NCBI GenBank assembly: GCA_029561455.1
Contig: JAKQIY010000006.1
Span: forward strand, 142,860 to 206,859
DNA length: 64,000 bases
Reading direction: 5' to 3'
DNA from: a bacterium
GTDB taxonomy: Bacteria > Zhuqueibacterota > Zhuqueibacteria > Residuimicrobiales > Krinioviventaceae
Shown here: one piece after another, positions 22,952-50,153 of the stretch
How the letters are laid out: the number at the start of each line of letters is the position of its first letter
Position numbering within the stretch: position 1 is the first letter of the stretch
The notes under the pieces: model-generated
Database searches by the model: none
The model's input: the letters and a program-made list of their open reading frames with translations, nothing else
Told to the model about the DNA's origin: nothing
Translations under genes and position numbers: made by a program

Positions 22952-22963
22952 CATGGTAACTCT

Positions 22964-23971: not shown

Positions 23972-24020
23972 AAGAATTATACTTTTCATAAACGCTACAT
24001 GAAATTGCAAAAGAGGGGTT

Positions 24021-25055: not shown

Positions 25056-25085
25056 CACAACTCCAAAAGCTGAAAAAGGGCTGTT

Positions 25086-26078: not shown

Positions 26079-26128
26079 TAGAGTTATTAATTTTTAAATA
26101 CAACTCCAAAAGCTGAAAAAGGACTGTT

Positions 26129-27127: not shown

Positions 27128-27174
27128 GTACATTTATTTTTATAAAAGCTACTTAAAATTGCAAAAGAGGGATT

Positions 27175-28241: not shown

Positions 28242-29744
28242 TTATCGCCAATCCGCCATTTGGGCATTAGTATAAAGTTGTTTGCGGTTTTCACCGTTGC
28301 TGTCCATCACCCATACGGATGACGCTGTTGAATTATCATTTGCCACATTAGTAAAAAGGATCTTGCCGCCATCGGGAGACCACACCGGATCCAGATCGTT
28401 GGTGCCGGCCGTTTTCTTGGATGAGATATTTGTCGTATCGCCGCTGCTGATATTAACGACAATCAGCTGCGCATCCAGCATTCTGCCGCTGCTCACCTGG
28501 TGCCCGGCAACATCACGATAATAGACAATTTTGTCCCCGGCCGGTGAAAATGACGGATGCCCCATAATTCCCGGCAAATTTTCCACAACCAGGGTCAAAT
28601 CGCCGTTATCCGGATTGACCAGGTAAATTTCACTATCCCATTCCTGCTCGCCAATTGTCAAAGCAACAATTTTATTGCTGACAGAGGTCCAATCCAAATC
28701 CCGGAAATGTCGCCCATCCGGTGCGGTGGCTATTTGCTGTAACTGCCCGCCGGTGGCGTCGATCTGGTACAATTTATTATAGTTGGCGTACAAAATTTTC
28801 TGCCCGTTACCGGCCCAGCAAAATCCTCTCCCATAATTAAAATAACCATCCACGGGTGTGGTGGTAATTTTTTGCACATTTGCGCCGTCGCGGTTCATGG
28901 TATAAATATGCGTTACAATATCCCGATCAGATGTAAAAGCGATTTTATCTCTGGTGGGGCACAGTTTGGGATACCAGTCCCGGCCTACAGCCCAGGTAAG
29001 TAGAATAGAATCGGTTCCGGCTGTATTGCCGGAATATATGTTATAATCGCCATCGCTGTTGCCGGCAAATAATATCGGGTAATCCGGTAACGGGAGGGTG
29101 GTAAAACTCCAGGCCGGTCCGTTAATTTCCGTTCCGCTCAAATCGCGCGCTACGATCTGCCAGTGATACGTGGTATTGTATAAAAGCCGGTTTAACGCGT
29201 AACTTGTATCTTGCAATTGCGAGGAAATAAGTTGGAATGCCGAATTGCCATTGCCCAAATATATATCAAAGCTTAATGTATCGTCATCATCCGGGTCCCG
29301 GCTACTCCAGGTCAACGACAACGAGATCGGTTGATTGACGGCGCCGTTGGCGGGAACCGGTTTTGATGGAATTGTTGGCGCATTATTGGCGGCAGCGCTT
29401 TTCGTTAACAGGATAGTGGCGATAGCCGTCTTGTGCTGTTTTACTTCTACAGATACAGACCCGGATTTATACCCGGTTTTAACTGCTTTAACGATATATG
29501 TATTTTCGCTGATATCTGTAAGAAAAAATTTTCCATCAGCATCGGTTATCACCGCGTCGCTGGCCGGGGAGGTAGTTATACTTGCTCCTGCCACCGGTAA
29601 ATTACTCTCCGCATCCAGCACTTGCCCGTTTATAGCGCCATTAGTTTCAGGCTCTACCGGGTCTTCGGTACATGAAAACCACCCCGCCATACACACCAGT
29701 AATCCATAGCAAACTAGCTTGATTATGCCTTTTTCCAATATCAT
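28242..29744 (-). CDS. TolB-like (PD40/WD40-like beta-propeller) lipoprotein with an N-terminal carboxypeptidase-regulatory-like domain.
   Basis: A lipobox is present (MAGWFSCTED). A CarboxypepD_reg-like segment is present (INGQVLDAESNLPVAGASITTSP...DADGKFFLTDISENTYIVKAVKTGYK). Several PD40-like repeat units follow (IAFTSDRDIVTHIYTMNRDGANVQKIT; NGDLTLV...; GGKILFTN...SVWVMDSNGENRKQL). Confidence 0.55.
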   Translation of the reverse strand: MILEKGIIKLVCYGLLVCMAGWFSCTEDPVEPETNGAINGQVLDAESNLPVAGASITTSPASDAVITDADGKFFLTDISENTYIVKAVKTGYKSGSVSVEVKQHKTAIATILLTKSAAANNAPTIPSKPVPANGAVNQPISLSLTWSSRDPDDDDTLSFDIYLGNGNSAFQLISSQLQDTSYALNRLLYNTTYHWQIVARDLSGTEINGPAWSFTTLPLPDYPILFAGNSDGDYNIYSGNTAGTDSILLTWAVGRDWYPKLCPTRDKIAFTSDRDIVTHIYTMNRDGANVQKITTTPVDGYFNYGRGFCWAGNGQKILYANYNKLYQIDATGGQLQQIATAPDGRHFRDLDWTSVSNKIVALTIGEQEWDSEIYLVNPDNGDLTLVVENLPGIMGHPSFSPAGDKIVYYRDVAGHQVSSGRMLDAQLIVVNISSGDTTNISSKKTAGTNDLDPVWSPDGGKILFTNVANDNSTASSVWVMDSNGENRKQLYTNAQMADWR

Positions 29745-29835: not shown

Positions 29836-30996
29836 TTAATGATCCGGCCCGGAAATAAATATATCGACACGCCGGTTTTTAATTCTTCCTTCCGCACTAT
29901 TATTTTCGGTCAGCGGGGCATAACAGGACTGCCCGGCTGAAAGCAAATTTCGACCATCATAACCCGAAACCGCCTGTAGCACTTTAACAACCCGGGCCGA
30001 TCTTAATGCCGACAGTTCCCAGTTACTGAATTTGTTTTTCTCCAGTTCATTAGAAAATGGAACTGCATCGGTATGTCCAACTACCATTAACTGAAAATCA
30101 CTATTTTTTGGTTTTTTCAATACTTGTGCTAAACGAAACAAGGCTTCTTCACCCCTGAGACGTAAATAGTCGCTTCCGGAAATAAATGCACTTTTCCCCG
30201 CCAAAGTATAACATAATTTATTGCCATGCCAGGATAACAACACATCGCCATTAATAATATCAATATGCAATGCGGTTTGTAATTCTTCATACAACGATTG
30301 CAATGCTGCGGATATATGTCCCTCCGGCGGGTTTGTTCCCGGAACAACTAGAGTATGATAATCAAATTCCTCTTTCCCCTGTAACGATTGCGTCAACTCC
30401 ACTAATTGTATATCCCTGGCTTTCAGTTCTGCACGTAAATTCGTTATCACCTGGTTATCCTGCGTCACCTGTTCTTCCAACTCTACTACTTTATCCTGTA
30501 GTAATTTAAAATTATCTGCAATCTGTTCCTGGGCTTGGTTTTCTGTAATATTACTAAAGGTTCCTGCCGCTATTGAACTTGTTTCCTTTGCATCAGCCGG
30601 TTTTAAAAAACCGGCGCGGATATAAACCCTGCCGGTTTGGTTTTTTCCTGTGGCCTTTAGATTAATAAATCCCTGATGTTCAATTTTTTGACCCTCAGGA
30701 ATGATAATAAATACTGTCAGCTTTTTTTTCTGACCGGCGCTTATTTCAACCCGTTTTGGGGATACCTCGAGCCAGGTAGTATCATAATCTGTTTCCACCC
30801 TGAGACCGGCTTTACCACTGTTGGTAACCTCCACCTCGCGTATCTCCAACCCACCCTCCGGCATAATAACTTCAATTTGTAAGGGCTCTATGAGTAATGC
30901 CGGTTCACAATAACTGTTAACAGCGCTAATTAACAGTATTAACGCCAGAATTATAAATATAGTATTTTTCACTTTTTCCTGCTCTGCAAATATCAA
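29836..30996 (-). CDS. OmpA/MotB-family protein with an OmpA-like C-terminal peptidoglycan-binding domain.
   Basis: The C-terminus reads VVGHTDAVPFS...SNWELSALRSARVVKVL...GQSCYAPLTENNSAEGRIKNRRVDIFI, a canonical OmpA_C-like block. There is an N-terminal signal or TM segment and a central coiled-coil. Confidence 0.7.
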   Translation of the reverse strand: MIFAEQEKVKNTIFIILALILLISAVNSYCEPALLIEPLQIEVIMPEGGLEIREVEVTNSGKAGLRVETDYDTTWLEVSPKRVEISAGQKKKLTVFIIIPEGQKIEHQGFINLKATGKNQTGRVYIRAGFLKPADAKETSSIAAGTFSNITENQAQEQIADNFKLLQDKVVELEEQVTQDNQVITNLRAELKARDIQLVELTQSLQGKEEFDYHTLVVPGTNPPEGHISAALQSLYEELQTALHIDIINGDVLLSWHGNKLCYTLAGKSAFISGSDYLRLRGEEALFRLAQVLKKPKNSDFQLMVVGHTDAVPFSNELEKNKFSNWELSALRSARVVKVLQAVSGYDGRNLLSAGQSCYAPLTENNSAEGRIKNRRVDIFISGPDH

Positions 30997-31111
30997 CTCG
31001 CGCTAGTCTAACTGATTTTTAATACCTCCCTTCCTCAGTCACACCACCAGGTCACCTGGCTCGTCTCCAGCAATTAAAATTTACTTTATGCTTTTAAATG
31101 TAACCAACCGA

Positions 31112-32416
31112 TTAATTGTTTTGGTTAACTATTGAAATATTATAATCGCCATACTGATTAATTGTCGATTGATGTAAATCACCGGTCTGGGTGGTAATAG
31201 CGCCGTTATAATCACCAATGTGGTAATTGGTTGCCTTGTTAAAATCACCGGTCTGTATGATAGTAATAGGATCCGGGTTACTATCGGAACCGCCAATGTC
31301 GAGCGTACCATTGTTATTATGCTCACCGAGCGTCAAATTAAATGCCTTGTTATTGTTGCCTGTTTGCAAAGTGAGGTGTTTGTTCTCATAATTATAACCA
31401 CCACCTACCCGTGATTCCGAATAATTGGAATTGCCGGTTTGTTCCACAACGGATGAATTGTTGCCACCCCAAAAATATAGTTTGGATACATTATCATCAC
31501 CAATTTGCTGAACAAAGCCATAATTGGCATCATCATATCGCTGGTCAAAACGGGCGTCGTTACGGTTGCCGGTTTGAATGATCTTGCCTTCGTTATCATC
31601 ACTGTCGCCATCCAGCCCTTGCTGCAGAATATTGGTGTTATCGCTACCGGTTTGTACTGATGCAGCCAGGTTGTTACTTTGGGCCTGGGAGATGGTTGAT
31701 TTATTTCTACCGGCTGTACCGGTCGCCAGGGGCGCGATGCTTTGTGAAGCGGTGTTATTATCTCCAATCTGGCTGATTAACCCTTTATTGTTGTGATCCA
31801 GAAAAGTGAACCCGGATGCGTTCATTGTCTGGGTCGATTTATTCATACTACCGTTTTGCAGAGATTCAAAATAGTTACCACTACCGGCCGGAATGCCGCC
31901 CACACCGAGGTTCTGAAAAGCATCGTTAGCTGTGCCGGTTTGAGAAATTTTTACTTCACTACCACCGGCGTGTACGCGGGTACTAGCAATATTAAGAGCT
32001 CCCTGCTGAAACACATTCGAGGTATTGCTGTTACGCTCATGGCGTACAGTAGCCTGGTTTTCAGTGCCTTCCTGTATAACCGTAGAGTTGTGATTGTCGT
32101 GATGCATCATATAAACATCTGCATCATTACCATCACCTGTCTGGTTTACCTGGGCATGCATACCACCCCAGGGACTGGAAACCTGTTCAACCTTGGTTTC
32201 ATTTGCATTGCCGGACTGGGTTATGTCAACCGAATTATAATTGGAATTTGCCGGGACGTCTTTGGATTGAATGACAGACACCTGGTTTCCGGAACCAGCC
32301 TGATCAACAGTTGCGGCATTATTTGCCCCGGTCTGATCCAGAGATGTATTGTTCCCGGCCGCCAGGGTTAGCGTAATCATTAAAAACAGACAAACGGGTA
32401 TAAAAAGACCTTTCAT
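31112..32416 (-). CDS. Curlin-repeat (CsgA/CsgB-like) secreted protein, 434 aa.
   Basis: A signal peptide is present. The body is N/Q/G/T-rich with degenerate repeats of the curlin type, Q.G..N.A...Q (VDQAGSGNQVSVIQ, ITQSGNANETKVEQ, VNQTGDGNDADV, ISQTGTANDAFQ, IIQTGNRNDARFDQ, VEQTGNSNYSE, IIQTGDFNKATNY). It lies in the same operon as csgEFG. Confidence 0.65.
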   Translation of the reverse strand: MKGLFIPVCLFLMITLTLAAGNNTSLDQTGANNAATVDQAGSGNQVSVIQSKDVPANSNYNSVDITQSGNANETKVEQVSSPWGGMHAQVNQTGDGNDADVYMMHHDNHNSTVIQEGTENQATVRHERNSNTSNVFQQGALNIASTRVHAGGSEVKISQTGTANDAFQNLGVGGIPAGSGNYFESLQNGSMNKSTQTMNASGFTFLDHNNKGLISQIGDNNTASQSIAPLATGTAGRNKSTISQAQSNNLAASVQTGSDNTNILQQGLDGDSDDNEGKIIQTGNRNDARFDQRYDDANYGFVQQIGDDNVSKLYFWGGNNSSVVEQTGNSNYSESRVGGGYNYENKHLTLQTGNNNKAFNLTLGEHNNNGTLDIGGSDSNPDPITIIQTGDFNKATNYHIGDYNGAITTQTGDLHQSTINQYGDYNISIVNQNN

Positions 32417-32450
32417 TATTTAACTCCTTGAAAAATTATAATATCAGTCC

Positions 32451-33395
32451 TTAATTTGTGCGTGTTACCTTGACAATACTGCCGTTACCGGTTTGGGTGA
32501 TAATTCCACCTAACCCGCTGCCAAAAACATTCAATTCGCCATAATGGTTGGCGCCATACTGGTTTATTTGTAACCGGTCGGCGTCTCCATCCTGGTTAAT
32601 ATCGCTTTTACCGTTATTTAATCCGATAGAGGTAATATAGGCTGTATTATTTCCTCCGTTTTCCTGGGATATTTTAGCATTGCTGCCGGTATCGCTATTA
32701 CTATTTAATGGATTGACCAGGTTTATCGCTGCCGTATTATTGCTGATCATTCCCTCACGACCCTGTTCGATGGTGGCGGAATGATTATCGCCAACCAACA
32801 AAATACTTACCGGCTGGGTATTGCTACCATTATAACTGCCATTGCTGATAATTGTGGCTTTATCTTCCTGCGAACGGCTTTGGTTACCGGCAATCAAGAT
32901 CAGAGAATTATTATGGTTGCCATCCTGACTGATTGTAGCTTCACCCCGATTCGATGGCCAGAGAATTTTTTCCTCGGCATTATTATAATTACCGGCCTGG
33001 GAAATAATTGCCGAGGAGGCATCGGCCGTTGTTACCTGGGAAGCCAGGTTCCAGTTCCCGGTTTGGGTAATTTTTTGCATGCCCAAATTGTTGCCGGCAA
33101 GATGGTTTTGGCTTGCTTCATTCCTGTAACCCTTTTGTGTGATCTGCTGTTTGTAGGCATTATAAACATCAAATGAAGAATTTAACTGAAATGCTTCATT
33201 GCGGGAACCGTTCTGTTCAATAAGCGATACCGAATTGCTGACTTTTTGAATAACATTAACAGCATTCTCAAATCCGATTTGCTCGATCATCACCTGGTTA
33301 TTATTACCGATCTGATCAATTGTGGCGGTTTGCTGAGCATTCCCGGGTGGACAAAAAAACAAGATCAGGATCGCAGGATAGCATAATTTCTTCAT
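32451..33395 (-). CDS. Curlin-repeat (CsgA/CsgB-like) secreted protein, 314 aa.
   Basis: Clear curlin repeats are present: ATIDQIGNNNQVMIEQIGFENAVNVIQ; IEQNGSRNEAFQ; ITQKGYRNEASQ; ITQTGNWNLASQ; ISQAGNYNNAE; ISQDGNHNNS; INQDGDADRLQINQYGANH. A signal peptide is present. Confidence 0.75.
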   Translation of the reverse strand: MKKLCYPAILILFFCPPGNAQQTATIDQIGNNNQVMIEQIGFENAVNVIQKVSNSVSLIEQNGSRNEAFQLNSSFDVYNAYKQQITQKGYRNEASQNHLAGNNLGMQKITQTGNWNLASQVTTADASSAIISQAGNYNNAEEKILWPSNRGEATISQDGNHNNSLILIAGNQSRSQEDKATIISNGSYNGSNTQPVSILLVGDNHSATIEQGREGMISNNTAAINLVNPLNSNSDTGSNAKISQENGGNNTAYITSIGLNNGKSDINQDGDADRLQINQYGANHYGELNVFGSGLGGIITQTGNGSIVKVTRTN

Positions 33396-33561
33396 TTCAT
33401 CCTCGAAATATTTACCAGCTTTTTAATTCATAATTGTTTTTATTGACTCAGTCAATGTAATTAGCATATTATTATGATAATGTGATTTTTGGTTTATTTA
33501 AACACGGCAGCAACACAAGCTGCCGTGTTCACTATTTGTGCCTTATATCTGCTTGTCGATT

Positions 33562-34587
33562 CTATGGATTCTGTGTTACGATTGCCTGATTGTTATTACC
33601 GGTTTGGGTAATTGTTCCGGTATGACCTGTACCAGTGGACAGAATTGAGGCAATATTGTTATCGCCGATTTGGGATATAGAACCCTTGTTCAAATCGCCG
33701 GTCTGGCTGATATCGGCAATATTATTGTTGCCGCCAATAAACTCGGTAGCATCGTTTTTATACCCATCCTGGGCAATTGTAGCGGTATTAAAATCACCAT
33801 AATATGTCGATGGCAAGTGCTGAAATGCTTTATTCGAACCGGTTCCGTATTGTTCCACTTTAGCCAGGTTATTATCACCGTTTATCCATTGTGTCACATT
33901 ATTACTGTTACTGGATGATAGCGCTGTGCCCTGAACAATAATAGTCTCATTAAAGGAACCAACTACCGCGGTGCTCGCTTTATTGGCCGTACCAAATTGT
34001 TCCATTGAACCTTCATTTTCGGAGCCTCTTTGGTTTAACCCTGCGGTATTGTTTGACCCTTCCTGATCTATATAAGCGCTATTCAGATAACCGCCATACT
34101 GTACCAGTTCGGTTACCTGGTTATTGTCGCCATTGATTTGGTTGATAATTGCGGAATGCCCTTCGCCATTTTGCTTGACAGCCGGGTTATAGGCATAGAC
34201 AAAATCGCCAACCTTATTATTATTACCAACCTGCGTAATAACTGTTGAATTGGCATTACCATTTTGCTGAACCGCTTCGGTTACACCGGTGGCGGTACGA
34301 AACTGGCTGACTTTATTTCCCGTGCCGTTTTGCTGAATATCGACCATATTTGCCGAACCAACCTGATTCACACCCAGGGCTGCCGGTTCGGAAGGAGTGC
34401 CGACGATATTGCCATCTCCGCCGCCCTGGTCGATCGCCGATATATTATCAGTTCCGCTTTGATTGACTTTAGCATAATTTGAACCAGATGCCTGATTTAC
34501 TGTTGAGCTATTTCCGGCAGCTAAAACAAAACTGGCCAGGACCATTACAAGTAATATAATAAATCTTGTTTTCATCATCATCCTCAC
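33562..34587 (-). CDS. Curlin-repeat (CsgA/CsgB-like) secreted protein, 341 aa.
   Basis: A signal peptide is present. The repeats include VNQASGSNYAKVNQSGTDNISAIDQ, VNQVGSANMVDIQQNGTGNKVSQ, VQQNGNANSTVITQVGNNNKV, IDQEGSNNTAGLNQRGSENEGSMEQFGTANKA, ISQTGDLNKGSISQIGDNNIASI and ITQTGNNNQAIVTQNP. Confidence 0.7.
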   Translation of the reverse strand: MRMMMKTRFIILLVMVLASFVLAAGNSSTVNQASGSNYAKVNQSGTDNISAIDQGGGDGNIVGTPSEPAALGVNQVGSANMVDIQQNGTGNKVSQFRTATGVTEAVQQNGNANSTVITQVGNNNKVGDFVYAYNPAVKQNGEGHSAIINQINGDNNQVTELVQYGGYLNSAYIDQEGSNNTAGLNQRGSENEGSMEQFGTANKASTAVVGSFNETIIVQGTALSSSNSNNVTQWINGDNNLAKVEQYGTGSNKAFQHLPSTYYGDFNTATIAQDGYKNDATEFIGGNNNIADISQTGDLNKGSISQIGDNNIASILSTGTGHTGTITQTGNNNQAIVTQNP

Positions 34588-34662
34588 TTGAACATTCTTC
34601 CAAAAGTATCAATTTAATTCAAATTTAACGAGCGGGAACCTCCATGTTCCCGCTTGCCATTA

Positions 34663-36522
34663 TTATGGCTGTTGAATGATTTGACTGAAATTGTTGACAC
34701 CGTTAACCATAATAGTGCCCGACTGGCCAATACCGGTTTGCTGAATTGCCGCAATATTAGTATCGCTGGAACCTAGCAGATCAATATCCGCAATGTGATT
34801 ATCGCCGGCCTGGCTTGTGGCAATGACGTTTCCTGAACCACTTACATTAATAAATGAATCATTGCTTTCACCATGCTGACCCTGAATCGAAGCGTTATCA
34901 TTACCAACAATTCCCAAAGTCGCTTCATTGGCGCCGCTGGTACTCCATACGGTGTATTGTTGCGCCTGGGTGGTTTTATTGCCATCGCCGGCAACATCTA
35001 TTACAGCTTTGCTGTAACGTCCATCCTGGAACTGAGAATAAACTCCATTGGTAACATCGGCCGCCTGAGGGCCAGTCCAGGAAAGTGCAAGCGGACTGGC
35101 AAGACCGGTAGCGGCAACATCAACAGATGCTGCCCCGGTATTATTATTACCGACATGTTTGACATTAATTTCCGAAGCCATGCCGCCTTTGCTTAACTGA
35201 TTGGCATTATTAAGATTACCTTCCTGGAAGACCAGCATTTTCTGAATACCATAGCTGCCAAAACTGGCTAATGTTTTTTGATCGGCAACGTTCTCATTGC
35301 CAATCTGCTTGATCTCAATGGCCATATAGCCTTTGTTTGCATTGGTGCGATGATAGGTAGAATTCAATTCCTGAGAGCCCTGGTTCAAATCGCCGGTTTG
35401 GAAAATTCCGGCTTCCCCGTTATTGCTGTTCATATCTATCAAAGCATCATTAGTATTGCCGGTTTGTACAACATAAGCTCCTTCCTTCCAGTCCGAAGCA
35501 TAACCCGGTTGATAATAGTTATTAACGGGAGCGCCGGATGCGCCTTGTGCAACGACTGCTTTATTACCGTTACCGCCATTCTGATCCACATCGGCATAGT
35601 TACGGCCATATTGCTGCACAGAAGCATTATGACTGTTACCTACCTGATCTACGGTGGCGATATTCTGGTTGCCAATCTGGTCAACATCAGCAAAATCACT
35701 GTTCCCGGTCATTGTAGTTGTTGCCAGGTTCATATCACCCAGTTGATAAGTATTGGCGATATTATCTGCTCCGGCGCTGATTTGTGATGCATTGTTCAGA
35801 TTACCATCCTGTAGTATATCCCCTTTCTGGTTATGGCCCAGGCCACTGCCGGAAAAGGTTTGACCAGCGGTATTATCATCGCCAAACTGATCAATATTTA
35901 TACCGCCGCTGTATCCATGATTGCTGCCGGTTATATTCTGGGTAGCGGCGTTACGGTCGCCAACAGTATAAATATACCCATGACTGTGGTTTGCCGACAT
36001 GGTTTGCGTGGCAGTATTATCATCGCCGATCTGGTCAACCTCAAAAGAATTGGTATAACCGGCAGAAATTGTTTGTGTGGACAAATTGCCGGCGCCTTGT
36101 TGATAAGCATTTACGGTCTGACCACTGTTGTATCCCGGAGCATAGGTGCTTTGTATTGCGGTATTGGTGGTTCCATCCTGTTCAATCGTCGCCCGGTTAG
36201 TGGAGTGACCACCGCCGCCGGTTTCAGTTTGATCGACATCAGCTACATTGCCTGTGCCGGTTTGTTTGACGTTGGCAATTTGCTGCCCGACCGGGGTATT
36301 TGATGCTGTTTCTACCTGGTCGACTGTAGCCGTATTAGCGCCATCCTGTTGCACGGTTATCTGGCCATTATCACCGGTTTGGTTGGTTGTGGTTACATTA
36401 GAACCGACCTGTGTTACATTAGTAGTATTATTATTGCCGTTCTGATTGTTGGTGTTGGTATTGGCGGCGTAGCTAAAGCCGACGAACGATAAACAAATTA
36501 TTAGAATAATAAATTTTTTCAT
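34663..36522 (-). CDS. Giant curlin-repeat protein, 619 aa.
   Basis: A signal peptide is followed by dozens of curlin-type units (VTQVGSNVTTTNQTGDNGQITVQQDGANTATVDQ; VDQIGDDNTATQ; IDQFGDDNTAGQ; VDQIGNQNIATVDQVGNSHNASVQQYGRNYADVDQNGGNGNKA; IFQTGDLNQGSQ; IKQIGNENVADQ). E. coli CsgA is 151 aa. Confidence 0.7.
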   Translation of the reverse strand: MKKFIILIICLSFVGFSYAANTNTNNQNGNNNTTNVTQVGSNVTTTNQTGDNGQITVQQDGANTATVDQVETASNTPVGQQIANVKQTGTGNVADVDQTETGGGGHSTNRATIEQDGTTNTAIQSTYAPGYNSGQTVNAYQQGAGNLSTQTISAGYTNSFEVDQIGDDNTATQTMSANHSHGYIYTVGDRNAATQNITGSNHGYSGGINIDQFGDDNTAGQTFSGSGLGHNQKGDILQDGNLNNASQISAGADNIANTYQLGDMNLATTTMTGNSDFADVDQIGNQNIATVDQVGNSHNASVQQYGRNYADVDQNGGNGNKAVVAQGASGAPVNNYYQPGYASDWKEGAYVVQTGNTNDALIDMNSNNGEAGIFQTGDLNQGSQELNSTYHRTNANKGYMAIEIKQIGNENVADQKTLASFGSYGIQKMLVFQEGNLNNANQLSKGGMASEINVKHVGNNNTGAASVDVAATGLASPLALSWTGPQAADVTNGVYSQFQDGRYSKAVIDVAGDGNKTTQAQQYTVWSTSGANEATLGIVGNDNASIQGQHGESNDSFINVSGSGNVIATSQAGDNHIADIDLLGSSDTNIAAIQQTGIGQSGTIMVNGVNNFSQIIQQP

Positions 36523-36623
36523 TTCTTTTCCCTCTTTCTTCCAATTTTAAATTACCATCCATGGCATCATTTATCTTTCTCGAATCCTGAAAAAGGTTGT
36601 ATAAAACATCAAACCGGGTTTAT

Positions 36624-37499
36624 TTAATTCGTTTGTTTAATAACCGCATTATTATTATTGCCGGTTTGTGTTGTCGACGCATTATGGGCATTGCCATACT
36701 GAAATGATTGTGCCGTATTCCAGTCGCCGGTTTGAGTTATTATTGAATAATTATTTTCCGATCCGGGCGTAGTTGCCGATTTATCCATATATTCCTCTGC
36801 AGTATTATTATTTCCGGATTGCACTACAAAACCCTGGTTACCACCGGTATGGCTCCAACCCCATTGTCCGCCAGCCATAATTTGATTGGAATAATTTTCA
36901 ATGCCAGTTTGGGTAGCGCTCAAGCTGGAATGGTCATTCACAGTTCCGCTTCCCAAAACCTGCCACGCTTCATTACCCATGCCGTTATCGCCGCCGCCGC
37001 CATTACCACTTTGAATTATGGTCGCGCCAAGCACGCTGCCATTGATGTGCTGGTTAGCGTAATGGTCGTCGCCGGTTTGGGTAATAGTACCGGTCGATTG
37101 ATTACGTAATTGGTTAATATAAGCTTCATTAAACGAACCGGTTTGGCCTACATTCGCCAGAGCATAATCATTCACATTTTGATTGATATCTGAAATATTC
37201 ATATCACCAAGTTGATTGACTACTGCCTGGGAAGGAGTGCTGCCGCCATAAGCCCCACGATATTGATCTACATCGGACCAGTTATTATTCCCGGTCTGCT
37301 GCACCGTGGCGGTAATGCCGGAAGAATAATACGTATAATCCGTTTTGGTCTGATCAACCGTACTGGTATTACTGGAACCAGTTTGTGTAGTAGTAGCTTG
37401 ATGGTTTTTGCCGGTTTGATTGATGCTCGATGAATTGCTGGCAGCAAGGACAAAACCGGCGAAAACAAGAACAAACAATAAAAGTATTAACTTTTTCAT
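36624..37499 (-). CDS. Curlin-repeat (CsgA/CsgB-like) secreted protein, 291 aa.
   Basis: A signal peptide is present. Repeats include INQTGKNHQATTTQTGSSNTSTVDQ, VQQTGNNNWSDVDQ, VNQLGDMNISDINQ, INQL...ITQTGDDHYANQ, VVQSGNNNTAEE, ITQTGDWNTAQSFQYGNAHNASTTQTGNNNNAVIKQTN. Confidence 0.65.
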   Translation of the reverse strand: MKKLILLLFVLVFAGFVLAASNSSSINQTGKNHQATTTQTGSSNTSTVDQTKTDYTYYSSGITATVQQTGNNNWSDVDQYRGAYGGSTPSQAVVNQLGDMNISDINQNVNDYALANVGQTGSFNEAYINQLRNQSTGTITQTGDDHYANQHINGSVLGATIIQSGNGGGGDNGMGNEAWQVLGSGTVNDHSSLSATQTGIENYSNQIMAGGQWGWSHTGGNQGFVVQSGNNNTAEEYMDKSATTPGSENNYSIITQTGDWNTAQSFQYGNAHNASTTQTGNNNNAVIKQTN

Positions 37500-37689
37500 A
37501 ATGACTACCTCTGTACTTTTACTCTTACCCGGTTTAAAGAATTATTGGTTTTGAATCACAATCGTAATATTAGTGATTCCGGTTTGAATAGCATTACCGG
37601 AATTATTGGTTGTAAATTCAAACCCGGTAAGATAAAATTGATACATAAAAATTTTCATTATTACACTATCCTGTAGAATTATTAAATAA

Positions 37690-38610
37690 TTATGGATAGG
37701 TTTGGTTAACTGTGGCGTTGTTGCCGGTGCCATTCTGCATAACAGTGGCTTTATTAACAAAGTCGCCATAATCGCCAAATAAACCGGTGCCGCCGTTTTG
37801 CACGACAGAAGCTGTATTGGAATCGCCAAGTTGATCAACATCGGACTTGTTAACATTCAGATTTTGGGTTACAGAGGCAGTGTTGTAATTACCGGCCTGG
37901 TAAATACCAAAATCATGATTACTGAACAGTCCTTTGCCGGTTTTATTATCATCGCCGGTTTGAGTTACTTCAGCATAGTTTCCTTGTGCGTTTTTGGCCC
38001 CGCCAGTACCATATTGTACTATGGTAGCAGTATTCCATCTTCCAGTTTGGGTTTCAATAGCCGTATTGCCAACTACCCAGCCGCCGCCGCCCTGTTCATC
38101 GACAACCGCAATATTTGCAGTTCCATCCTGAACTTGCCGTACATACCCGTTAAAACCGGTTTGATAAGAATTAGCTTCATTAGAGTTACCAATTTGATCC
38201 TGGTCAACTGTAGAGGAAACAGTGTGCTGCCAGGCAGTCACTTTATTGGTATTTCCTTCCTGGTATTGAGTGCCGGTGTTGCCACCGTTGCCGCCATCAG
38301 CTAATTGCCATAAAGTGGCCTGGTTATTGTTGCCATGTTGTTCCTGGGCGCCGGTCTCGCCAACAACTGTTGACCCAGCCGGCCAGCCGCCTTTTTGATC
38401 CAGATCGGCCACGTTGCCGGATCCATCCTGAATTTGGGTTGCAGTGCTGGTATTGGCTATTTGTTCAATAGTAGCCGCATTGCTTGAACCGGTCTGTGAA
38501 GCAGAGGCGGTGTTGCCCGAACCGGTTGTCGATATTGTTGCAGAATTGCTGGCCGCAAATACAAATCCGGCCATTGCTAAACAGAGTATAAAGGTAAACA
38601 GGGTTTTCAT
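37690..38610 (-). CDS. Curlin-repeat (CsgA/CsgB-like) secreted protein, 306 aa.
   Basis: A signal peptide is present. Repeats include ASQTGSSNAATIEQ, IQDGSGNVADLDQ, QEQHGNNNQATLWQ, VDQDQIGNSNEANSYQTGFNG, IVQYGTG...VTQTGDDNK, VDQLGDSNTASVVQNG. It is a close paralog of the next gene, with the same N- and C-termini (...ATVMQNGTGNNATVNQTYP). Confidence 0.7.
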   Translation of the reverse strand: MKTLFTFILCLAMAGFVFAASNSATISTTGSGNTASASQTGSSNAATIEQIANTSTATQIQDGSGNVADLDQKGGWPAGSTVVGETGAQEQHGNNNQATLWQLADGGNGGNTGTQYQEGNTNKVTAWQHTVSSTVDQDQIGNSNEANSYQTGFNGYVRQVQDGTANIAVVDEQGGGGWVVGNTAIETQTGRWNTATIVQYGTGGAKNAQGNYAEVTQTGDDNKTGKGLFSNHDFGIYQAGNYNTASVTQNLNVNKSDVDQLGDSNTASVVQNGGTGLFGDYGDFVNKATVMQNGTGNNATVNQTYP

Positions 38611-38642
38611 GATAAACCTCTCTTTTTGTTTAATTTATGTTT

Positions 38643-39545
38643 TTATGGATAGGTCTGGTTTACATTGGCAGAATTGCCATTGCCGTTTTGCATAACTGTG
38701 GCGCTGTTTACAAATGCGCTGAATGCGCCGGTATCGCCGGTTTGATTAATAACTGCATTGTTGGAATCGCCAATTTGATCGACATCGGAAAGGTTGGCAT
38801 TTAAATTCTGGTTAACAAAAGCAGTATTAAAATTTCCTTGCTGATAAATACCCCAGTCGTATTGATTATAATAGCCATCTCCGGTTTTATTGTTATCACC
38901 GGCTTGATTTATTTCCGCCGAGTTGCCTAAAGCAGTTTTTGCAGCGCCTGTTCCATACTGTACAATATTGGCTTTATTGTTTACACCGGTTTGTTTTTCA
39001 ATTGCGGAATTTCCATCGCCGCCGCCCTGTTCATCGACAAAGGCGCTGTTTCCAGTTCCAGTCTGATATTGTTGAACATAACCATTATAACCAACCTGGA
39101 AAGAATTAGCGACATTGGAATTACCAATCTGATCCTGATATGTTTTACTGCTGCCGGTATATTGCCAGGCAGTCGCTTTGTTGCTGTTACCCTCCTGGTA
39201 TTGCCGGGCGTCGTTGCCGCCTTCATTTTCGTTGGCTAATTGTAACAATGTGGCCTGGTTGCTATTGCCATGCTGTTCCTGGGCGCCGGTCTCCCCTACG
39301 ACTGTTGATCCGGCTGGCCAGCCGCCTTTTTGATCCAGATCGGCAACGTTGCCGGTCCCATCCTGTATCTGGTATGCCGAACTGGTGTTGGCAATTTGTT
39401 CAATACTGGCGCCATTGCCGGAGCCGGTTTGCGAGGCCGAAGCGCTGTTCGCGTTCCCGGTGGTCGATATAGTGGCGGTATTGCTGGCGGCATACATAAA
39501 TCCAGCCACTGCCAGACAGATGATAATAGTGAAGAATGTTTTCAT
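38643..39545 (-). CDS. Curlin-repeat (CsgA/CsgB-like) secreted protein, 300 aa. It is the first curlin subunit gene after csgG.
   Basis: It is a paralog of 37690-38610. The repeats include SASQTGSGNGASIEQ, QEQHGNSNQATLLQ, VDQIGDSNNAVINQTGD and ATVMQNGNGNSANVNQTYP. A signal peptide is present. Confidence 0.7.
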   Translation of the reverse strand: MKTFFTIIICLAVAGFMYAASNTATISTTGNANSASASQTGSGNGASIEQIANTSSAYQIQDGTGNVADLDQKGGWPAGSTVVGETGAQEQHGNSNQATLLQLANENEGGNDARQYQEGNSNKATAWQYTGSSKTYQDQIGNSNVANSFQVGYNGYVQQYQTGTGNSAFVDEQGGGDGNSAIEKQTGVNNKANIVQYGTGAAKTALGNSAEINQAGDNNKTGDGYYNQYDWGIYQQGNFNTAFVNQNLNANLSDVDQIGDSNNAVINQTGDTGAFSAFVNSATVMQNGNGNSANVNQTYP

Positions 39546-39666
39546 GGTACTACCCCTTTCTTAAAAATTTTACAGCGTTTTGGTTAAACTGTTGGTTATT
39601 ACTGTTAAAATGCTTACTCCCACAACCCTCCTTTCACGTGTTGATAATTACTAGTATTGTTGATTG

Positions 39667-41091
39667 CTAATAATATTTGATTCCAAACTTGAAACTCCAA
39701 AAATAATCATCCAGTTTGCCATGCAGTATTCCGTCCATGTAATCCGTAAAAGTATACTGGTTTTCAAATAAAAAATTGAAACTGACCTGGCGGGAAACAA
39801 AGCATTCCAGTCCGGCGCCGCCGGCAATAACAGGTTCCCAGCCATTAAAGCGTTTCTCCCTGCTTATTTGTTCTCCTGCTTTATCTCTGACTTTAAAATT
39901 CATAACACCGCCGCCGGCATACACAAATGGCCTTAAACTGCTTTTAGGCCACATATTATAAAATCCCTGTAACTGGGCTAATGCCAGGTCGGTATAAAAG
40001 TTATCACGATTTGCCAGCCGGCCGGCGCTGGCATTGAGCGCCAAAGCGAAGCGGGGATGTAAACCATAACTAATCGTAACATCGCCGCCGGGTCGCAGCC
40101 GGGGATTGGCATAATCACCCTGGTATAACTGGCTGCTGAAGTTGAGCGAAAATGCCAGGCCCTTGTCGTAACCAAACGCCGGAGCTTCGTTAAATGCGGT
40201 TTGTTCCTGACCAAACGCAGAATACCGCTCGCTGTTTTCTTTCTCTACCAGGTAATTTTGGATAATAGGTGATTTGATGTCTTCAGGATTTTTTAATTCC
40301 CAGTTTTTGGTAATAATTCCTTCGCAAATCAAACTCAAAACGCCTTTTTCAATCGCTTCTAAAACACACATCTGCGGGGGTTCATTGGTGCTGTAACCGC
40401 TTTCAATCTCAAGCAAGCGTTTTTCCCGGATAAACCGGTACAGACTGAAATCTACGGCTTTGGATAGGATAGTTTTAGTGGTTGTTACATTATTTAAAAT
40501 CCGTCCCGTTTTTGTGGCAACGGTGCGCAGGTAGATATTAACCTGGTCGCTGCGGAATTCTGTATGACCGCCCAAACCAAAATAGCGGGCGCCAAATCCG
40601 CCGGTTAATGTATTGGTTTCGTAGGAAATGATCCCGCCTTCAAGGGTAACGCCGGCGTAAAGCAGCGGCGGTAATGGGGGAAGTTTATTTCCCTGGTCAT
40701 CGGTATAATTATCGCGGGTGGCGGTGATTATTTTTCGTTCATTTAAAAGATTGGAAATACCTTCGCGTTCAACTACAATGAACCAGCCGGAATCCTCAAG
40801 CGATTTTAACAACATAGACGTGGCGCCCTGGGTGACGGCTGTCGACCAGGTCATGCCGGTAGCAGAGGCTTTGTATTGACCGGTTTGATCGCGGAATTTG
40901 TAAACTGCTATGACGATTTTTTCTTTGGGCTCGGGTAAAGAAATCAACTCTTTATGTACTGATGTAACATAAGTAATGGCTGCCGGTGTACTATGTACCG
41001 GGTTCATATTGCGAAATTGTGGCGAGCAACCAACAGTTAATATTATTAATGCTGTGAGCAGGAAAAAGCCTTTAGCTCTTTTATTATTCAT
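39667..41091 (-). CDS. csgG: Curli production assembly/transport lipoprotein CsgG with an extra C-terminal beta-barrel-like domain.
   Basis: A lipobox is present (LTVGCSP). Residues ~55-290 align with E. coli CsgG by eye: YKFRDQTGQYK.../IQDETGQFK; GATSMLLKSLEDSGWFIVVEREGISNLLNERKII / SATAMLVTALKDSRWFIPLERQGLQNLLNERKII; GGFGARYFGLGGHTEF / GGVGARYFGIGADTQY; ESGYSTNEPPQMCVLEAIEKGVLSLI / EVGYTSNEPVMLCLMSAIETGVIFLI. A further ~190 aa follow that E. coli lacks. They end ...FKFGIKYY, which looks like a small OMP beta-barrel. Confidence 0.85.
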   Translation of the reverse strand: MNNKRAKGFFLLTALIILTVGCSPQFRNMNPVHSTPAAITYVTSVHKELISLPEPKEKIVIAVYKFRDQTGQYKASATGMTWSTAVTQGATSMLLKSLEDSGWFIVVEREGISNLLNERKIITATRDNYTDDQGNKLPPLPPLLYAGVTLEGGIISYETNTLTGGFGARYFGLGGHTEFRSDQVNIYLRTVATKTGRILNNVTTTKTILSKAVDFSLYRFIREKRLLEIESGYSTNEPPQMCVLEAIEKGVLSLICEGIITKNWELKNPEDIKSPIIQNYLVEKENSERYSAFGQEQTAFNEAPAFGYDKGLAFSLNFSSQLYQGDYANPRLRPGGDVTISYGLHPRFALALNASAGRLANRDNFYTDLALAQLQGFYNMWPKSSLRPFVYAGGGVMNFKVRDKAGEQISREKRFNGWEPVIAGGAGLECFVSRQVSFNFLFENQYTFTDYMDGILHGKLDDYFWSFKFGIKYY

Positions 41092-41531
41092 TACAGACCC
41101 TCGCCATTGTAGTATGGTAATTCGATAGTTGTGGTGCCGCCGGTGGAAGGATCGCTGATCTCTATACGCAGCCCCTGTTCAGCGGGAATGACATCAATAG
41201 TATAATCGCCAATTTCATAATGCCCTTCTTCCAATTCCGATTCACCGAATATCTGCGTAACCAGTTTACTGGAAAGCCGGCTCAGAATTTGCCGGTTTAT
41301 ACTGTCGGTAAAATCTTCCAGGGGGTCGCTGGCCTGATAGGAATAAGAACTGGCTTTATCCCCGGTCTTGTCCTGCAGTTGTGCAGAACTTAACAGCCAC
41401 GAAGCATTATATGGATTTCCGCCAAAATTAGGGTTTACAAAGGTATGGACTAATTCTGTGGTGTAACCGGGTAAAACAGAAAACAGAATCAAGCCTAGAA
41501 CGCAAAAAACACCAAAACAGCTCTTGTTCAT
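41091..41531 (-). CDS. csgF: Curli assembly protein CsgF.
   Basis: A signal peptide is followed by [29 protein letters not shown], which matches E. coli CsgF [27 protein letters not shown]. Also [11 protein letters not shown] matches NFTQAIQSQIL, and [29 protein letters not shown] matches [29 protein letters not shown]. The ATGA start/stop overlap with csgG indicates translational coupling. Confidence 0.8.
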   Translation of the reverse strand: [146 protein letters not shown]

Positions 41532-41542
41532 AGTTATTCTCC

Positions 41543-42115
41543 CTAATAAATACCTGTTCCAGCCATATCGTCGCCGGCCATTTGTTTTTGATCCTGAGTG
41601 TAATTAACCAGATAATTGCCGGTAAAACCAGTTGCCTGCCTGGCAGCCTCTTCGATTTCGTCGGATCTTGGCGTTAATCGGTTTTGGTAAATAGAAATAT
41701 CGTTAATATTTATGAAAACCCAGCTGCCGGATTGCCCGGTCGGCATTTCTGAAATATAAATTGTATAATCATAAACCCCGGCAGGAGGCTCCCAGAGGGT
41801 ATAAAAATACTCATAAAATTCCTGACCGATTTTGGTTTTGGTATCGTTAATTATCAGTCCATCAATTTCCAATACATCGCCCGGACGAGTATTTTTTACA
41901 GTCTCAGTTTGTTCTGTTTCTTTAACAGTATCAGCCTGCTGCTGGACTTCCTGCCGGGCTTCCTGCAGTAATTTTTCCAGCAACGCTTTGGTGTTCTGTG
42001 ACTTTTTTTCTTTATCGCTGACTGTTGTACTATCGTTTGTTTGCGTATAAAGGGGTACAGTCATCATAAAAACACACAGCATCGTAACTAAAGTACTGGT
42101 TACACATTTTTTCAT
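41543..42115 (-). CDS. csgE: Curli production assembly/transport component CsgE-like protein.
   Basis: A signal peptide is present. LEIDGLIINDTKTKIGQEFYEYFYTLWE matches E. coli CsgE [28 protein letters not shown], and GSWVFININDISIYQNRL matches GSWITITVNQDVIFQTFL. It is the first gene of the E-F-G order and lies 12 bp upstream of csgF. Confidence 0.65.
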   Translation of the reverse strand: MKKCVTSTLVTMLCVFMMTVPLYTQTNDSTTVSDKEKKSQNTKALLEKLLQEARQEVQQQADTVKETEQTETVKNTRPGDVLEIDGLIINDTKTKIGQEFYEYFYTLWEPPAGVYDYTIYISEMPTGQSGSWVFININDISIYQNRLTPRSDEIEEAARQATGFTGNYLVNYTQDQKQMAGDDMAGTGIY

Positions 42116-42751
42116 AAATTTTTCAGGTGCAGCGAATTAATAAAAGGAACAAGTAATCCCCTTTTTCATCCCACACCCGACTCGCCCTTAATATGATATG
42201 AACCAGGAAATTAACATTATTATATGTCTAGTTTTTTTATTAATTCAAGCACTATGCCAGGTAGAAATTCAGATCTATTGGACAATAACCCCTATGTTGA
42301 TATTTTTCAAATATTTGTAAATGTTCTTATTTCGTAAATATCTTCGAGGAATGGAATTTGTGTTTCCTGACTGAAACAGGTTGATGACAATAATGCTATA
42401 ACATCATAAAAAACATAAATCAAGCAATTGTACTAAAAATGACACAAAAAAGCATCATTCGTGTAATTCGGAAAAATTTGTAATTATACCTGTAATAAAA
42501 AAAAACAAACAATTAAAACAAAAATGATCATTAAAAATACTCAACTTTAGATTGCCAGGTAAGTTATTTGAAAATTAAAGATGATGAGGTTTTAGAGCGG
42601 GACCTTGACAGTACGATTCACTCTTTTTTAACCAGAAGCATAAATTTTTAAAATTATAGCTTCTGGTTCACAATCTCCCGATTGGGAACCCGCTTGTACA
42701 AAATCTCTGATTTGATATGCAAAAATTATATAAAAAAATAACTGCTTTAAA

Positions 42752-43400: not shown

Positions 43401-44765
43401 TCAATTCTCCACCCCCAACAACCTTCTTGCCCCCCGCACCGCGCCGTTGCGGCCATCCCCATCGGCGATAACCTGCAACAATCCCGCCGCACGGTTGATA
43501 CCCTTGATCCGCTTTTTCGGCAAAAATCCCCCATTACGCACCAGGTGGACAAACTCTTCTTCATCGATCATCCCCATTTCAAACATGCGCTGGTAAGCGT
43601 TCAACTCCTTGTCCAGCGCCGTGGCGTTCAGCAGCCGCGCCCGCGCCTGTTCCGTCTTGTCGAGCAGATTAACCTCTTTCCATTCCAGCTTCCAGTTCGC
43701 CCCGGCCTCGCCGCGCAGGATCAAAAACGTATCCACCACGCGACGTATAATCGGGTCGATTTTCGTCCGGTACGAGTTGATATTCGCAACGATCATATCG
43801 TTCTGGTTATTGCTCATCCGCTCGGTCGTCGTCCACTTGTACAGACCGAACATAAACGGCGGCAGTCCCGTTTTGGTTATGATTTCCTCCTGCGCCGTAT
43901 GCACCGGCACTTGCAGGTTCAATATGGTATCCTGTCCGCCGAGTATTTTCACGTCGATACTGGCCCCCTCCGGCACGGCCGCGGCTACATCCCGCACACT
44001 CCCCCTGCGCCGAGCCCGGAACACCTCGGTAATATCATTCTGCAAATCCTCCGCCGCTTTTTTTACGCGCCCGAAATCGCCCCCGCGGCCCCCTTGCACC
44101 GTCACCAGGAAGGTCGGGTCCCCCACCCGCCATACCTGGTTTTCGATAGCCTGCTGGATGCGTAAAAAGATTTTCACCACAAACGGCAGCGAATAAAACA
44201 GACTGTATCCCTGCGGATGCCCGTCCCGCTGATCAAAACTGAGATAATAGATGAAATCCTGGTTGGCAAACGGCAGCACATTAAACACCCCCTCGCGCGC
44301 CTGACCCAGCAGCAAACAACCGTTGCGCTCCACAAAGCGGAAATCGTTGGCACGGGCGATCTTGAGCTGCTCCACATCATCCAGCATTTCGGACGGCACC
44401 AGTTCCCCAAAACCCATGCCTTTAGCCAGCGCCGAATCGCACAACTGGTCCACCCACGTATTCAGGCCCGAACTGAAATGGTTCACCCGTACGCCGGACT
44501 TGAACGCGTTCAGCAACTGCTGCACGCGCGGATCTTGCGCGGTCAACTCAAAATCGCCGATCAGCCGCACCAGCTTGATTACCGCCACATCCAAAAGCGG
44601 CACCGCCTCGCGCATCAGGTCGTACAAGTCCAGGTTGAACTTTAATGGCTGATAACCTTGCAGCGCCAGCGCAAAAGGATTCTCCCACGCATCGCGCGTC
44701 TGTGTCCGACTGCTTTTGGCGGACTCTTCCCGCCCCGCAAACCACCTGCTAAAAGGATTTCGCAT
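43401..44765 (-). CDS. Hypothetical soluble protein, 454 aa, family not recognised. It has a vague phage-portal-like feel.
   Basis: The ORF is intact with no signal or TM segment. It has a Gly-rich loop (VQGGRGGDFGRV). It is the first gene of a three-gene minus-strand operon. Confidence 0.6.
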   Translation of the reverse strand: MRNPFSRWFAGREESAKSSRTQTRDAWENPFALALQGYQPLKFNLDLYDLMREAVPLLDVAVIKLVRLIGDFELTAQDPRVQQLLNAFKSGVRVNHFSSGLNTWVDQLCDSALAKGMGFGELVPSEMLDDVEQLKIARANDFRFVERNGCLLLGQAREGVFNVLPFANQDFIYYLSFDQRDGHPQGYSLFYSLPFVVKIFLRIQQAIENQVWRVGDPTFLVTVQGGRGGDFGRVKKAAEDLQNDITEVFRARRRGSVRDVAAAVPEGASIDVKILGGQDTILNLQVPVHTAQEEIITKTGLPPFMFGLYKWTTTERMSNNQNDMIVANINSYRTKIDPIIRRVVDTFLILRGEAGANWKLEWKEVNLLDKTEQARARLLNATALDKELNAYQRMFEMGMIDEEEFVHLVRNGGFLPKKRIKGINRAAGLLQVIADGDGRNGAVRGARRLLGVEN

Positions 44766-44968: not shown

Positions 44969-45238
44969 ATGATATCAACTCAAGACAAACAACAAATAAT
45001 TGAAATTGCCCAAAAATACCAGGCAGCGCGCGTTTTTCTGTTTGGTTCCAGTATCGATCCGCACAGAACTCCAAAAGATATTGATCTAGCTGTGGAAGGC
45101 CTGCCCGATAACCTGTTCTTCAAATTCTGGGGCGAACTTATCTTTGCCCTCTCCAAGCCGGTTGATCTGATTGATCTGAAAAGAGAAACCCGCTTTACAG
45201 AAATAATCCGCGCTGAAGGTCTTTTATTATTTGGATAA
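44969..45238 (+). CDS. Minimal nucleotidyltransferase (MNT) domain protein, the antitoxin-type partner of HEPN/MNT pairs.
   Basis: The motif LFGSSIDPHRTPKDIDLAVEG matches the G[SG]...D.D nucleotidyltransferase fold signature. It is 89 aa. No HEPN partner ORF is evident next to it. Confidence 0.7.
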   Translation: MISTQDKQQIIEIAQKYQAARVFLFGSSIDPHRTPKDIDLAVEGLPDNLFFKFWGELIFALSKPVDLIDLKRETRFTEIIRAEGLLLFG

Positions 45239-49860: not shown

Positions 49861-50153
49861 AAAAATTCTTCTCTTCGGGTTTGAATAAATGGGGGAATTA
49901 ATTTATTTAAAAAAAAGTTATTTATATATATTTTTGAAGATCGGATATTCTATAAATCCCTGCCCGGTATAATTTTTCTATTCTCCTAGAGTTTAATACT
50001 CAATGAAGAAAAGTGATTAATTCGATCTTGTACAAATCTCAGGTCTGCCACGAAATAAACGCCACCACTCTCCGGTATTATGAATCTGTAATTTTACTTT
50101 TAGGTGTAGAGTAATTTCCTTATCTAAAATTTCTCATTATCAGGAGAGAGCTT

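Follow-up and report, generated by a model that had tools for sequence, protein, structure and literature searches.

Is the run of genes on the minus strand of this 64-kb stretch of DNA (referred to as the window throughout) a genuine curli, or type VIII secretion, locus, and in which respects does it depart from the curli systems already described? The window is identical to an ENA metagenome contig, and an initial annotation had proposed that it carries an expanded curli locus in a host of the Fibrobacteres-Chlorobi-Bacteroidetes (FCB) group with a type IX secretion system (T9SS). We show here that the region is a genuine curli locus of an FCB-group bacterium, and that its CsgG protein continues into a second domain, modelled as an outer-membrane beta-barrel; the initial annotation had not remarked on the two-domain CsgG. 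The identification is based on homology, domain architecture and synteny, and from the same material we infer a secretion route, the formation of fibres, sigma54 control, a role for the accessory genes and a candidate nucleator.

The secretion genes and a two-domain CsgG

The table of open reading frames (ORFs) places eleven consecutive ORFs on the minus strand, with exactly the coordinates given in the initial annotation and in the order csgE, csgF, csgG, seven secreted curlin-repeat genes and an OmpA-family gene. Together with a beta-propeller gene that follows them, the block comprises twelve ORFs, all of which are intact; every gene lies on a single strand, and the intergenic gaps range from -1 to 190 bp. 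Searches with the hidden Markov models PF10627, PF10614, PF03783 and PF07012 gave significant matches for csgE, csgF, csgG and the seven curlin proteins, ten of ten scoring above the Pfam gathering scores. Both Pfam and the solved E. coli chains bear out the proposed order of the three secretion genes, which are listed here with the C-terminal domain of CsgG:

41543..42115, minus strand: csgE, 190 aa; PF10627 E=1.3e-24, CsgE of PDB entry 2na4 E=1.2e-8
41091..41531, minus strand: csgF, 146 aa; PF10614 E=2.6e-41, E. coli CsgF E=4.7e-14 in a PDB sequence search
39667..41091, minus strand: csgG, long form, 474 aa; PF03783 E=2.3e-61, E. coli CsgG E=2.6e-64 over residues 9-280
39670..40158, minus strand: C-terminal domain of CsgG, residues 312-474, predicted by the AlphaFold model to be an 8-stranded OmpA/NspA-like outer-membrane beta-barrel

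In CsgE, a K/E/Q-rich spacer separates the signal peptide from the CsgE domain (residues 84-185). Alignment with the E. coli CsgF chain of PDB entry 6l7a shows that CsgF has kept the N-terminal NPNFGGNP segment, with a Y at the position of E. coli N17. CsgG, which is 38% identical to E. coli CsgG, has a lipoprotein-type leader with Cys22, a CsgG domain extending to about residue 280, a linker helix (275-298) and the C-terminal barrel; the lipobox cysteine is kept in at least 90% of 32 CsgG homologues. The protein is identical to NCBI HPN45153, annotated as "MAG TPA: CsgG/HfaB family protein [bacterium]". Its nearest homologues, 69-70% identical, come from unclassified metagenome-assembled genomes (MAGs), and the nearest named ones from candidate division KSB1, Calditrichia and Ignavibacteria. 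HfaB of the Caulobacter holdfast system (HfaA/HfaB/HfaD) is likewise a CsgG-family protein; however the HfaB model gave only a weak match to the window CsgG (E=1e-10), and with 41 bits against 237 bits for CsgG a holdfast reading was rejected on score. Unlike the holdfast system, the window also has CsgE, CsgF and true curlin-repeat proteins.

Two observations weigh against the identification. The NCBIfam models for CsgA, CsgB, CsgE, CsgF and CsgG all match, but under their equivalog cut-offs, and therefore the proteins are distant homologues and not E. coli-type equivalogs. Furthermore, the constriction residues Y51, N55 and F56 of E. coli CsgG are replaced by S, T and W, with the aromatic position alone being kept; such constriction residues mark the E. 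coli subtype rather than the curli family. The layout itself is a recurrent one, as csgE, csgF and a long csgG with 0-8 curlin genes are found in about 80 FCB genome loci, which were kept for tabulation from 596 confirmed in a scan, and curlin genes flank csgEFG in most of them. Locus L077 from a Cyclobacteriaceae MAG and locus L042 apparently contain two csgE-csgF-csgG sets, or a second csgE-csgF pair, inside 20 kb. For the window, we are confident that this is a functional-looking curli locus, which would operate by the export and fibre mechanism proposed below.

The window CsgG runs approximately 190 residues beyond the CsgG domain. The AlphaFold model, built from 32 homologues, predicts eight strands in this region with a predicted local distance difference test (pLDDT) score near 90 at residues 312-473. 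The strands are antiparallel, the periplasmic turns short and the alternate loops longer, and the chain ends in a C-terminal aromatic residue, as is characteristic of an eight-stranded outer-membrane protein (OMP) barrel of the OmpA-like type (PF13505). The isolated domain gave no match against Pfam, and the fold is taken from the structure model. A long, barrel-bearing CsgG is the norm across the FCB group and not special to the window: nearly all of the top 120 CsgG database homologues are 420-490 aa in length, many of them with PF13505, and nearly all of the 80 kept loci align through CsgG residue 474, including those of Flavobacterium, Hymenobacter, Draconibacterium, Saprospiraceae and Ignavibacteria. 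In a previous survey, the size of CsgG was said not to vary (Dueholm 2012, PMC3521004).

Unlike the barrels of the OmpA N-domain, NspA, OmpW, the OprF N-domain and T9SS PorG, the barrel in the window is fused to the subunit of a secretion channel. Its residues D326, D450, D453 and D462 are invariant across the 32 homologues and Y323, G325 and Y327 nearly so, and on a standard OMP topology loops 1 and 4, both predicted to be extracellular, hold these residues. In barrels of this kind it is usually the loops that vary, and a concentration of the most conserved residues there is unusual for the eight-stranded OMP fold; in the model, the conserved loops hint at a surface-exposed functional site. 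No description of a CsgG-barrel fusion was found in the searchable literature, a weak negative as most subscription journals lie outside it.

The curlin subunit array

Seven consecutive subunit genes follow csgG, in agreement with the initial annotation, and are listed with the features found between them:

38643..39545, minus strand: subunit 1, 300 aa; PF07012 E=1.4e-21 in 8 stretches, 11 Q-x-G-x-x-N motifs
37690..38610, minus strand: subunit 2, 306 aa; PF07012 E=2.4e-21
37542..37658, minus strand: 38-codon ORF ending in NNSGNAIQTGITNITIVIQNQ, within the 190-bp gap between subunits 2 and 3
36624..37499, minus strand: subunit 3, 291 aa; PF07012 E=5.6e-18
34663..36522, minus strand: subunit 4, 619 aa, the longest; PF07012 E=7.7e-14, repeats degenerate past about residue 450
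34631..34654, minus strand: GC-rich hairpin after subunit 4, terminator- or attenuator-like
33562..34587, minus strand: subunit 5, 341 aa from a GTG start (337-339 aa as called elsewhere); PF07012 E=5.8e-30
33501..33529, minus strand: hairpin with a 13-bp stem after subunit 5, terminator- or attenuator-like
32451..33395, minus strand: subunit 6, 314 aa; PF07012 E=1e-13, net charge -8
31112..32416, minus strand: subunit 7, 434 aa; PF07012 E=6.9e-21, 16 motifs

A signal-peptide-like N-terminal leader is present in all seven proteins, and each contains between two and eight separate curlin-repeat stretches according to Pfam. Strict Q-x-G-x-x-N motifs number 7-16 per subunit and are mostly spaced 22-25 aa apart, which fits the published repeat length of 23 +/- 5 aa (Sleutel 2023, PMC10192328). 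All seven match both the CsgA and the CsgB model, below cut-off in each case; subunits of the A and B types have been reported to be indistinguishable outside the Gammaproteobacteria (Dueholm 2012, PMC3521004).

The initial annotation described this repertoire as unusually large and diversified, which was an overstatement, as published surveys give larger copy and repeat numbers. Some genera have been reported to possess as many as six dissimilar csgA/B homologues, and the repeat numbers in the same survey reach 22 (Dueholm 2012, PMC3521004); across 201,210 genomes the number of CsgA-like copies declines towards 14 with a maximum of 30, at 4-62 repeats per protein (Sleutel 2023, PMC10192328). 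At least seven curlin genes within 10 kb were found in three of the roughly 80 tabulated FCB loci, namely the window, a Calditrichaeota MAG and the closest relative of the window. With its seven subunits, including one of 619 aa, the window is at the high end among these loci and inside the published range.

The subunits were compared with one another and with those of related genomes. Subunits 1 and 2 share 72% identity at the protein and 73% at the DNA level, and subunit 2 is a recent tandem duplicate of subunit 1; the remaining pairs are 28-43% identical. Save for the one recent pair, we take the seven to be old, fast-diverging paralogues. The first and last repeats are no better conserved among the paralogues than the interior ones, giving no sign of common docking ends. 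In the closest genome, where CsgG is 69% identical, recognizable counterparts exist for three subunits only: subunit 4 is 42% identical to the 813-aa fourth subunit of that relative, subunit 6 is 45% identical to its last subunit and subunit 5 is 36% identical to its counterpart. The curlin copy number in three related genomes is 6, 7 (the window) and 8, and the turnover of subunit genes is quick. The tail NNSGNAIQTGITNITIVIQNQ of the 38-codon ORF agrees with the consensus of the curlin repeat and is similar to the ends of subunits 5 and 7, and this ORF is probably the 3' remnant of a lost, eighth curlin gene.

Subunit 6 stands apart as the least acidic of the seven. It ends in a basic C-terminal strand, VKVTRTN, and a basic C-terminus of this subunit is kept in all three related genomes. 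The last repeat of E. coli CsgB is also basic, and by analogy with E. coli CsgB, subunit 6 is suggested as the best candidate for a CsgB-like nucleator.

The seven paralogues could also be alternative major subunits, expressed separately by condition or through phase or antigen variation and served by one secretion machine. We regard this as a possible, though somewhat unlikely, alternative. The low identity of 28-43% between paralogues and the lack of especially conserved terminal repeats would be consistent with it, as would the gene remnant inside the array and the differing copy numbers and weak orthology between close genomes whose CsgG proteins are yet 69% identical. It has also been suggested that extra subunit copies modulate fibre properties (Dueholm 2012, PMC3521004). 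In addition, the hairpins behind subunits 4 and 5 speak against a single, simple transcript of the block, which also counts against our main reading, and expression along the array may therefore be graded or split. On the other hand, no internal promoters were identified in the array, nor any invertible elements or recombination repeats besides the duplication of subunits 1 and 2. The short gaps and shared strand fit co-transcription, and the cross-seeding of curlins described between species (Sleutel 2023, PMC10192328) makes co-polymerization plausible.

Accessory genes and probable upstream control

The initial annotation had an OmpA-family protein close the locus. Such a gene is indeed present after the subunits, but the conserved block runs one gene further:

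29836..30996, minus strand: accessory OmpA-like protein, 386 or 378 aa; OmpA domain PF00691 E=2e-11, residues 271-375
28242..29744, minus strand: lipoprotein, 500 aa, with CarboxypepD_reg, fn3 and PD40/Tricorn-type beta-propeller domains; domain matches, and synteny in two related genomes

The accessory OmpA-like protein starts with an N-terminal hydrophobic helix, followed by a beta-sandwich (about residues 34-129), a coiled coil (about 152-204) and a MotB/PomB-like peptidoglycan-binding domain (227-381). Its C-terminal 155 residues match the peptidoglycan-binding domains of PomB, MotB and TssL with E values down to 1.6e-13 and come after a long helix; in contrast to those anchors, the window has no MotA partner. 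Similar in fold to the N-terminal sandwich are MSP, ASH and PapD-like domains, among them those of the pilus chaperones Caf1M and CsuC, an assignment with which a weak Pfam match to Cep192_D6 agrees, and here the usher that goes with PapD-like chaperones is absent from the window. Searched against PDB sequences, the N-terminal domain gave no match at E<=10.

Full-length homologues of the accessory protein number just two among 5.8 billion proteins. In two related genomes, each directly follows a curlin array, which has eight genes in one and six in the other, and both precede a 496-aa protein with CarboxypepD_reg, fn3 and PD40-propeller domains, which is 51% identical to the 500-aa lipoprotein of the window and has the Cys-TEDP lipoprotein start in common with it. 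As the propeller gene is syntenic in both related genomes, the conserved unit extends from csgE to 28242; the propeller lipoprotein is probably surface-exposed. A metagenome scan for further relatives of the accessory protein returned 297 pattern matches, none of which was confirmed, and therefore the association of the accessory pair with curli rests on three genomes.

Our hypothesis is that the accessory protein may hold subunits in the periplasm in place of CsgC or CsgH. Several points count against it: the structure model, built on an alignment of three sequences, has a low pLDDT of 58, the gene pair was found in three genomes only, and an ASH/PapD-like domain also occurs in an unrelated T9SS cargo protein of the window, which weakens a chaperone-specific reading.

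As initially reported, CsgC, CsgH and CsgD gave no match among the ORFs of the locus or the other scanned ORFs of the window. The initial annotation had concluded that regulation must differ; a replacement can be named from sister contigs, although the genes in question are missing from the window itself. Two contigs from other samples, L002 and L003, share 99.9% identity with the window over 13.1 kb and encode, directly upstream of csgE, a histidine kinase with a PAS domain and a response regulator of the NtrC type (receiver, Sigma54_activat and HTH_8 domains). A kinase and a sigma54-type regulator are found upstream of csgE in L002, L003, L005, L008, L011, L015 and L021; besides the two sister contigs, these loci comprise the closest relative and four Ignavibacteria-type loci. 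Two putative control elements are retained in the window:

42244..42259, minus strand: sigma54-like -24/-12 element TGGCATAGTGCTTGAA, 129 nt upstream of the csgE ATG
42428..42439, minus strand: box TTTTTAGTACAA, unchanged when aligned with the DNA that precedes csgE in L005, the closest relative

A motif of the form TGGCAY-N5-TTGR is found between the regulator gene and csgE in six of six distinct regulator-linked loci, and its distance to csgE is 60-150 nt in five of these; the 2.8 Mb of collected loci contain it just 24 times. The box TTTTTAGTACAA is a possible activator binding site. Sigma54-type control of the curli locus appears likely but unproven, and the kinase and sigma54-type response regulator are the likely replacement for CsgD. 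Weighing on the other side, TGGCATAGTGCTTGAA reads TGGCAT-N5-TTGA, so that the -24 element and the spacing are right while GA stands where GC is expected at -12; across the loci the -12 part reads TTGA or TTGG and never the canonical TTGC. Moreover, the motif was defined post hoc, after inspection of the data, the six loci include three that are close relatives, and the kinase and regulator genes are nowhere in the 64-kb window. The canonical sigma54 pattern is also not enriched in the window (32 matches against 35 expected); as this count is uninformative alone, the signal stems from the cross-locus comparison only. The searchable literature, from which most subscription journals are missing and which therefore provides a weak negative, yielded nothing on sigma54 control of curli.

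In locus L085, from the genome of the closest relative, the curli block is followed after approximately 1.2 kb by a gene (13839-14492) for a regulator with Response_reg and GerE (LuxR-type) domains. Broadly, this regulator and CsgD are members of one family, and the window has no counterpart of it; given the size of the family, little can be read into its presence.

A junction lies upstream of csgE. Identity with L002 and L003 ends at window position 42783 (42783/42784), 56 bp past the regulator stop codon. Beyond it lie two small ORFs, a lone phage portal gene (43401-44765, minus strand; phrog_30703 E=2.5e-68), a Polbeta nucleotidyltransferase gene (44969-45238) and a SatD gene (45491-46120). 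Small inverted repeats are present at the junction, and no tRNA genes were found in the window. Phage-derived DNA occupies the place of the kinase and regulator, with the promoter region intact, and the junction may be a strain-level rearrangement or an assembly alternative.

If the rearrangement is real, it could have cut the locus off from its regulators and left it decaying or silent in this strain. The end of identity at 42783 with the phage portal gene beyond it, the lack of a regulator copy in the window and the curlin gene remnant would agree with such a fate, which we nevertheless hold to be decidedly unlikely. None of the twelve ORFs is disrupted, the window still has the promoter-like motif and the upstream box, and the identity of 99.9% over 13.1 kb to the regulator-linked version indicates that any separation is recent. 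Another part of the genome could also hold the regulator genes, or the junction could have arisen as a variant of the assembly.

Host, proposed mechanism and relation to known curli systems

At least ten window proteins carry a Por_Secre_tail domain, among them S8, C25 and M6 peptidases, a CotH protein and LVIVD/beta-helix proteins, which supports the T9SS-bearing FCB-group host that had been assumed. This host probably lies outside Bacteroidota proper, within the FCB superphylum. The genes around the curli locus are as follows:

899-20261, minus strand: T9SS cargo proteases, comprising two S8 subtilases, one C25 gingipain-like and two M6 InhA-like proteins; four of the five have FlgD_ig and Por_Secre_tail C-termini, the fifth FlgD_ig only
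3219-6314: fused MFS/spermidine-synthase/TPR protein amid the protease run
20462-28215, plus strand: TonB-dependent-receptor-like gene (CarboxypepD_reg and Plug, 829 aa), then five tandem paralogues of 330-346 aa, each with a lipoprotein-like leader and one CarboxypepD_reg domain
46994-47968, minus strand: sixth CarboxypepD_reg copy, on the opposite side of the curli locus
48205-63341, plus strand: T9SS cargo, including CotH kinase-like, LVIVD-repeat/NosD beta-helix and InhA-MAM proteins and an ASH/HYDIN-like Ig protein (58423-59859)

With T9SS cargo on both sides, the curli locus is thus part of an island of surface-protein genes whose products leave the cell by another secretion system. In such surroundings, and with subunit sequences of low complexity, the Q/N-rich repeat proteins might be taken for generic beta-solenoid adhesins or T9SS cargo beside a CsgEFG module, a reading that is hardly credible and effectively refuted by the multiple curlin stretches above gathering score and the CsgA and CsgB matches in seven of seven proteins, by the lack of a Por_Secre_tail domain in any of them even at E<=0.1, and by the adjacency of curlin genes to csgEFG in most of the related loci.

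Based on homology with E. coli, we propose that the seven curlin subunits would be exported unfolded via Sec, captured under a CsgE cap and passed through an oligomeric CsgG channel, the lumen of which would be narrowed by the NPNFGGNP segment of CsgF. Outside the cell, the subunits would fold into stacked beta-solenoid amyloid fibres. Each CsgG protomer would contribute its own 8-stranded OmpA-like barrel as an added membrane anchor, and the block ends with a lineage-specific pair, the peptidoglycan-binding PapD-like protein and the beta-propeller lipoprotein. Transcription would probably be driven from the sigma54-type promoter through the kinase and NtrC-type regulator pair.

A more far-reaching proposal is that the curli machine of the FCB group has an architecture of its own within type VIII secretion, beyond mere divergence from the E. 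coli machine. In this variant, the acidic loops (D326, D450, D453 and D462) of a barrel-ringed CsgG would be the place where a nucleator such as subunit 6 docks with its basic C-terminus, a PapD-like protein tethered to peptidoglycan would take over the anti-aggregation role of CsgC or CsgH, a sigma54-type two-component system would stand in for CsgD, and mixed or switchable fibres would be made from a fast-turnover array. As a whole, we consider this speculative combination quite unlikely.

In comparison with the E. coli and Salmonella system (csgBAC-csgDEFG), the window has homologous CsgE, CsgF and CsgG proteins, the NPNFGGNP segment of CsgF and secreted subunits with Q-x-G-x-x-N repeats of about 22 aa. 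It differs in that its genes form one co-oriented cluster instead of two divergent operons, in its subunits, which number seven and measure 291-619 aa against two of about 150 aa, in lacking CsgC and CsgD, and in a CsgG that bears an extra 8-stranded barrel and in which Y51 and N55 of the E. coli protein are not conserved. The regulator is the LuxR-type CsgD in E. coli, whereas for the window locus it is likely to be a sigma54-type two-component system.

Curli loci of the Bacteroidetes type likewise have no csgC or csgD, several csgA/B homologues that differ from one another and defy assignment to an A or a B type, and large, variable repeat numbers. Their arrangement of csgEFG with curlin genes recurs in loci of Flavobacterium, Hymenobacter, Draconibacterium, Saprospiraceae and Ignavibacteria. 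All Bacteroidetes genera surveyed were without csgC and all but Spirosoma without csgD (Dueholm 2012, PMC3521004), and curli operons are widespread in Bacteroidota (2025 review). The size of the locus and its lack of CsgC, CsgD and CsgH are already documented for FCB-type curli. Unlike those loci, the present one belongs to a host probably outside Bacteroidota proper, the nearest named relatives of which are KSB1 and Calditrichia. The PapD-like/OmpA gene, the propeller gene, the sigma54-type pair and the CsgG barrel are not mentioned in the two published surveys (PMC3521004, PMC10192328).

As a curli locus, the window is a good but ordinary example, and a few of its accessory features have been little described. 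The barrel-fused CsgG, common though it is in databases, the accessory gene pair and the recurring link to a sigma54-type regulator are under-described, none having been found in the searched literature; they are relevant to curli researchers and to users of CsgG nanopores, and leave the basic picture of the locus unchanged. The locus shows curli in deep-branching FCB lineages near KSB1 and Calditrichia, and it provides a compact example of how subunit genes duplicate, diverge and get lost while the secretion machine stays conserved.

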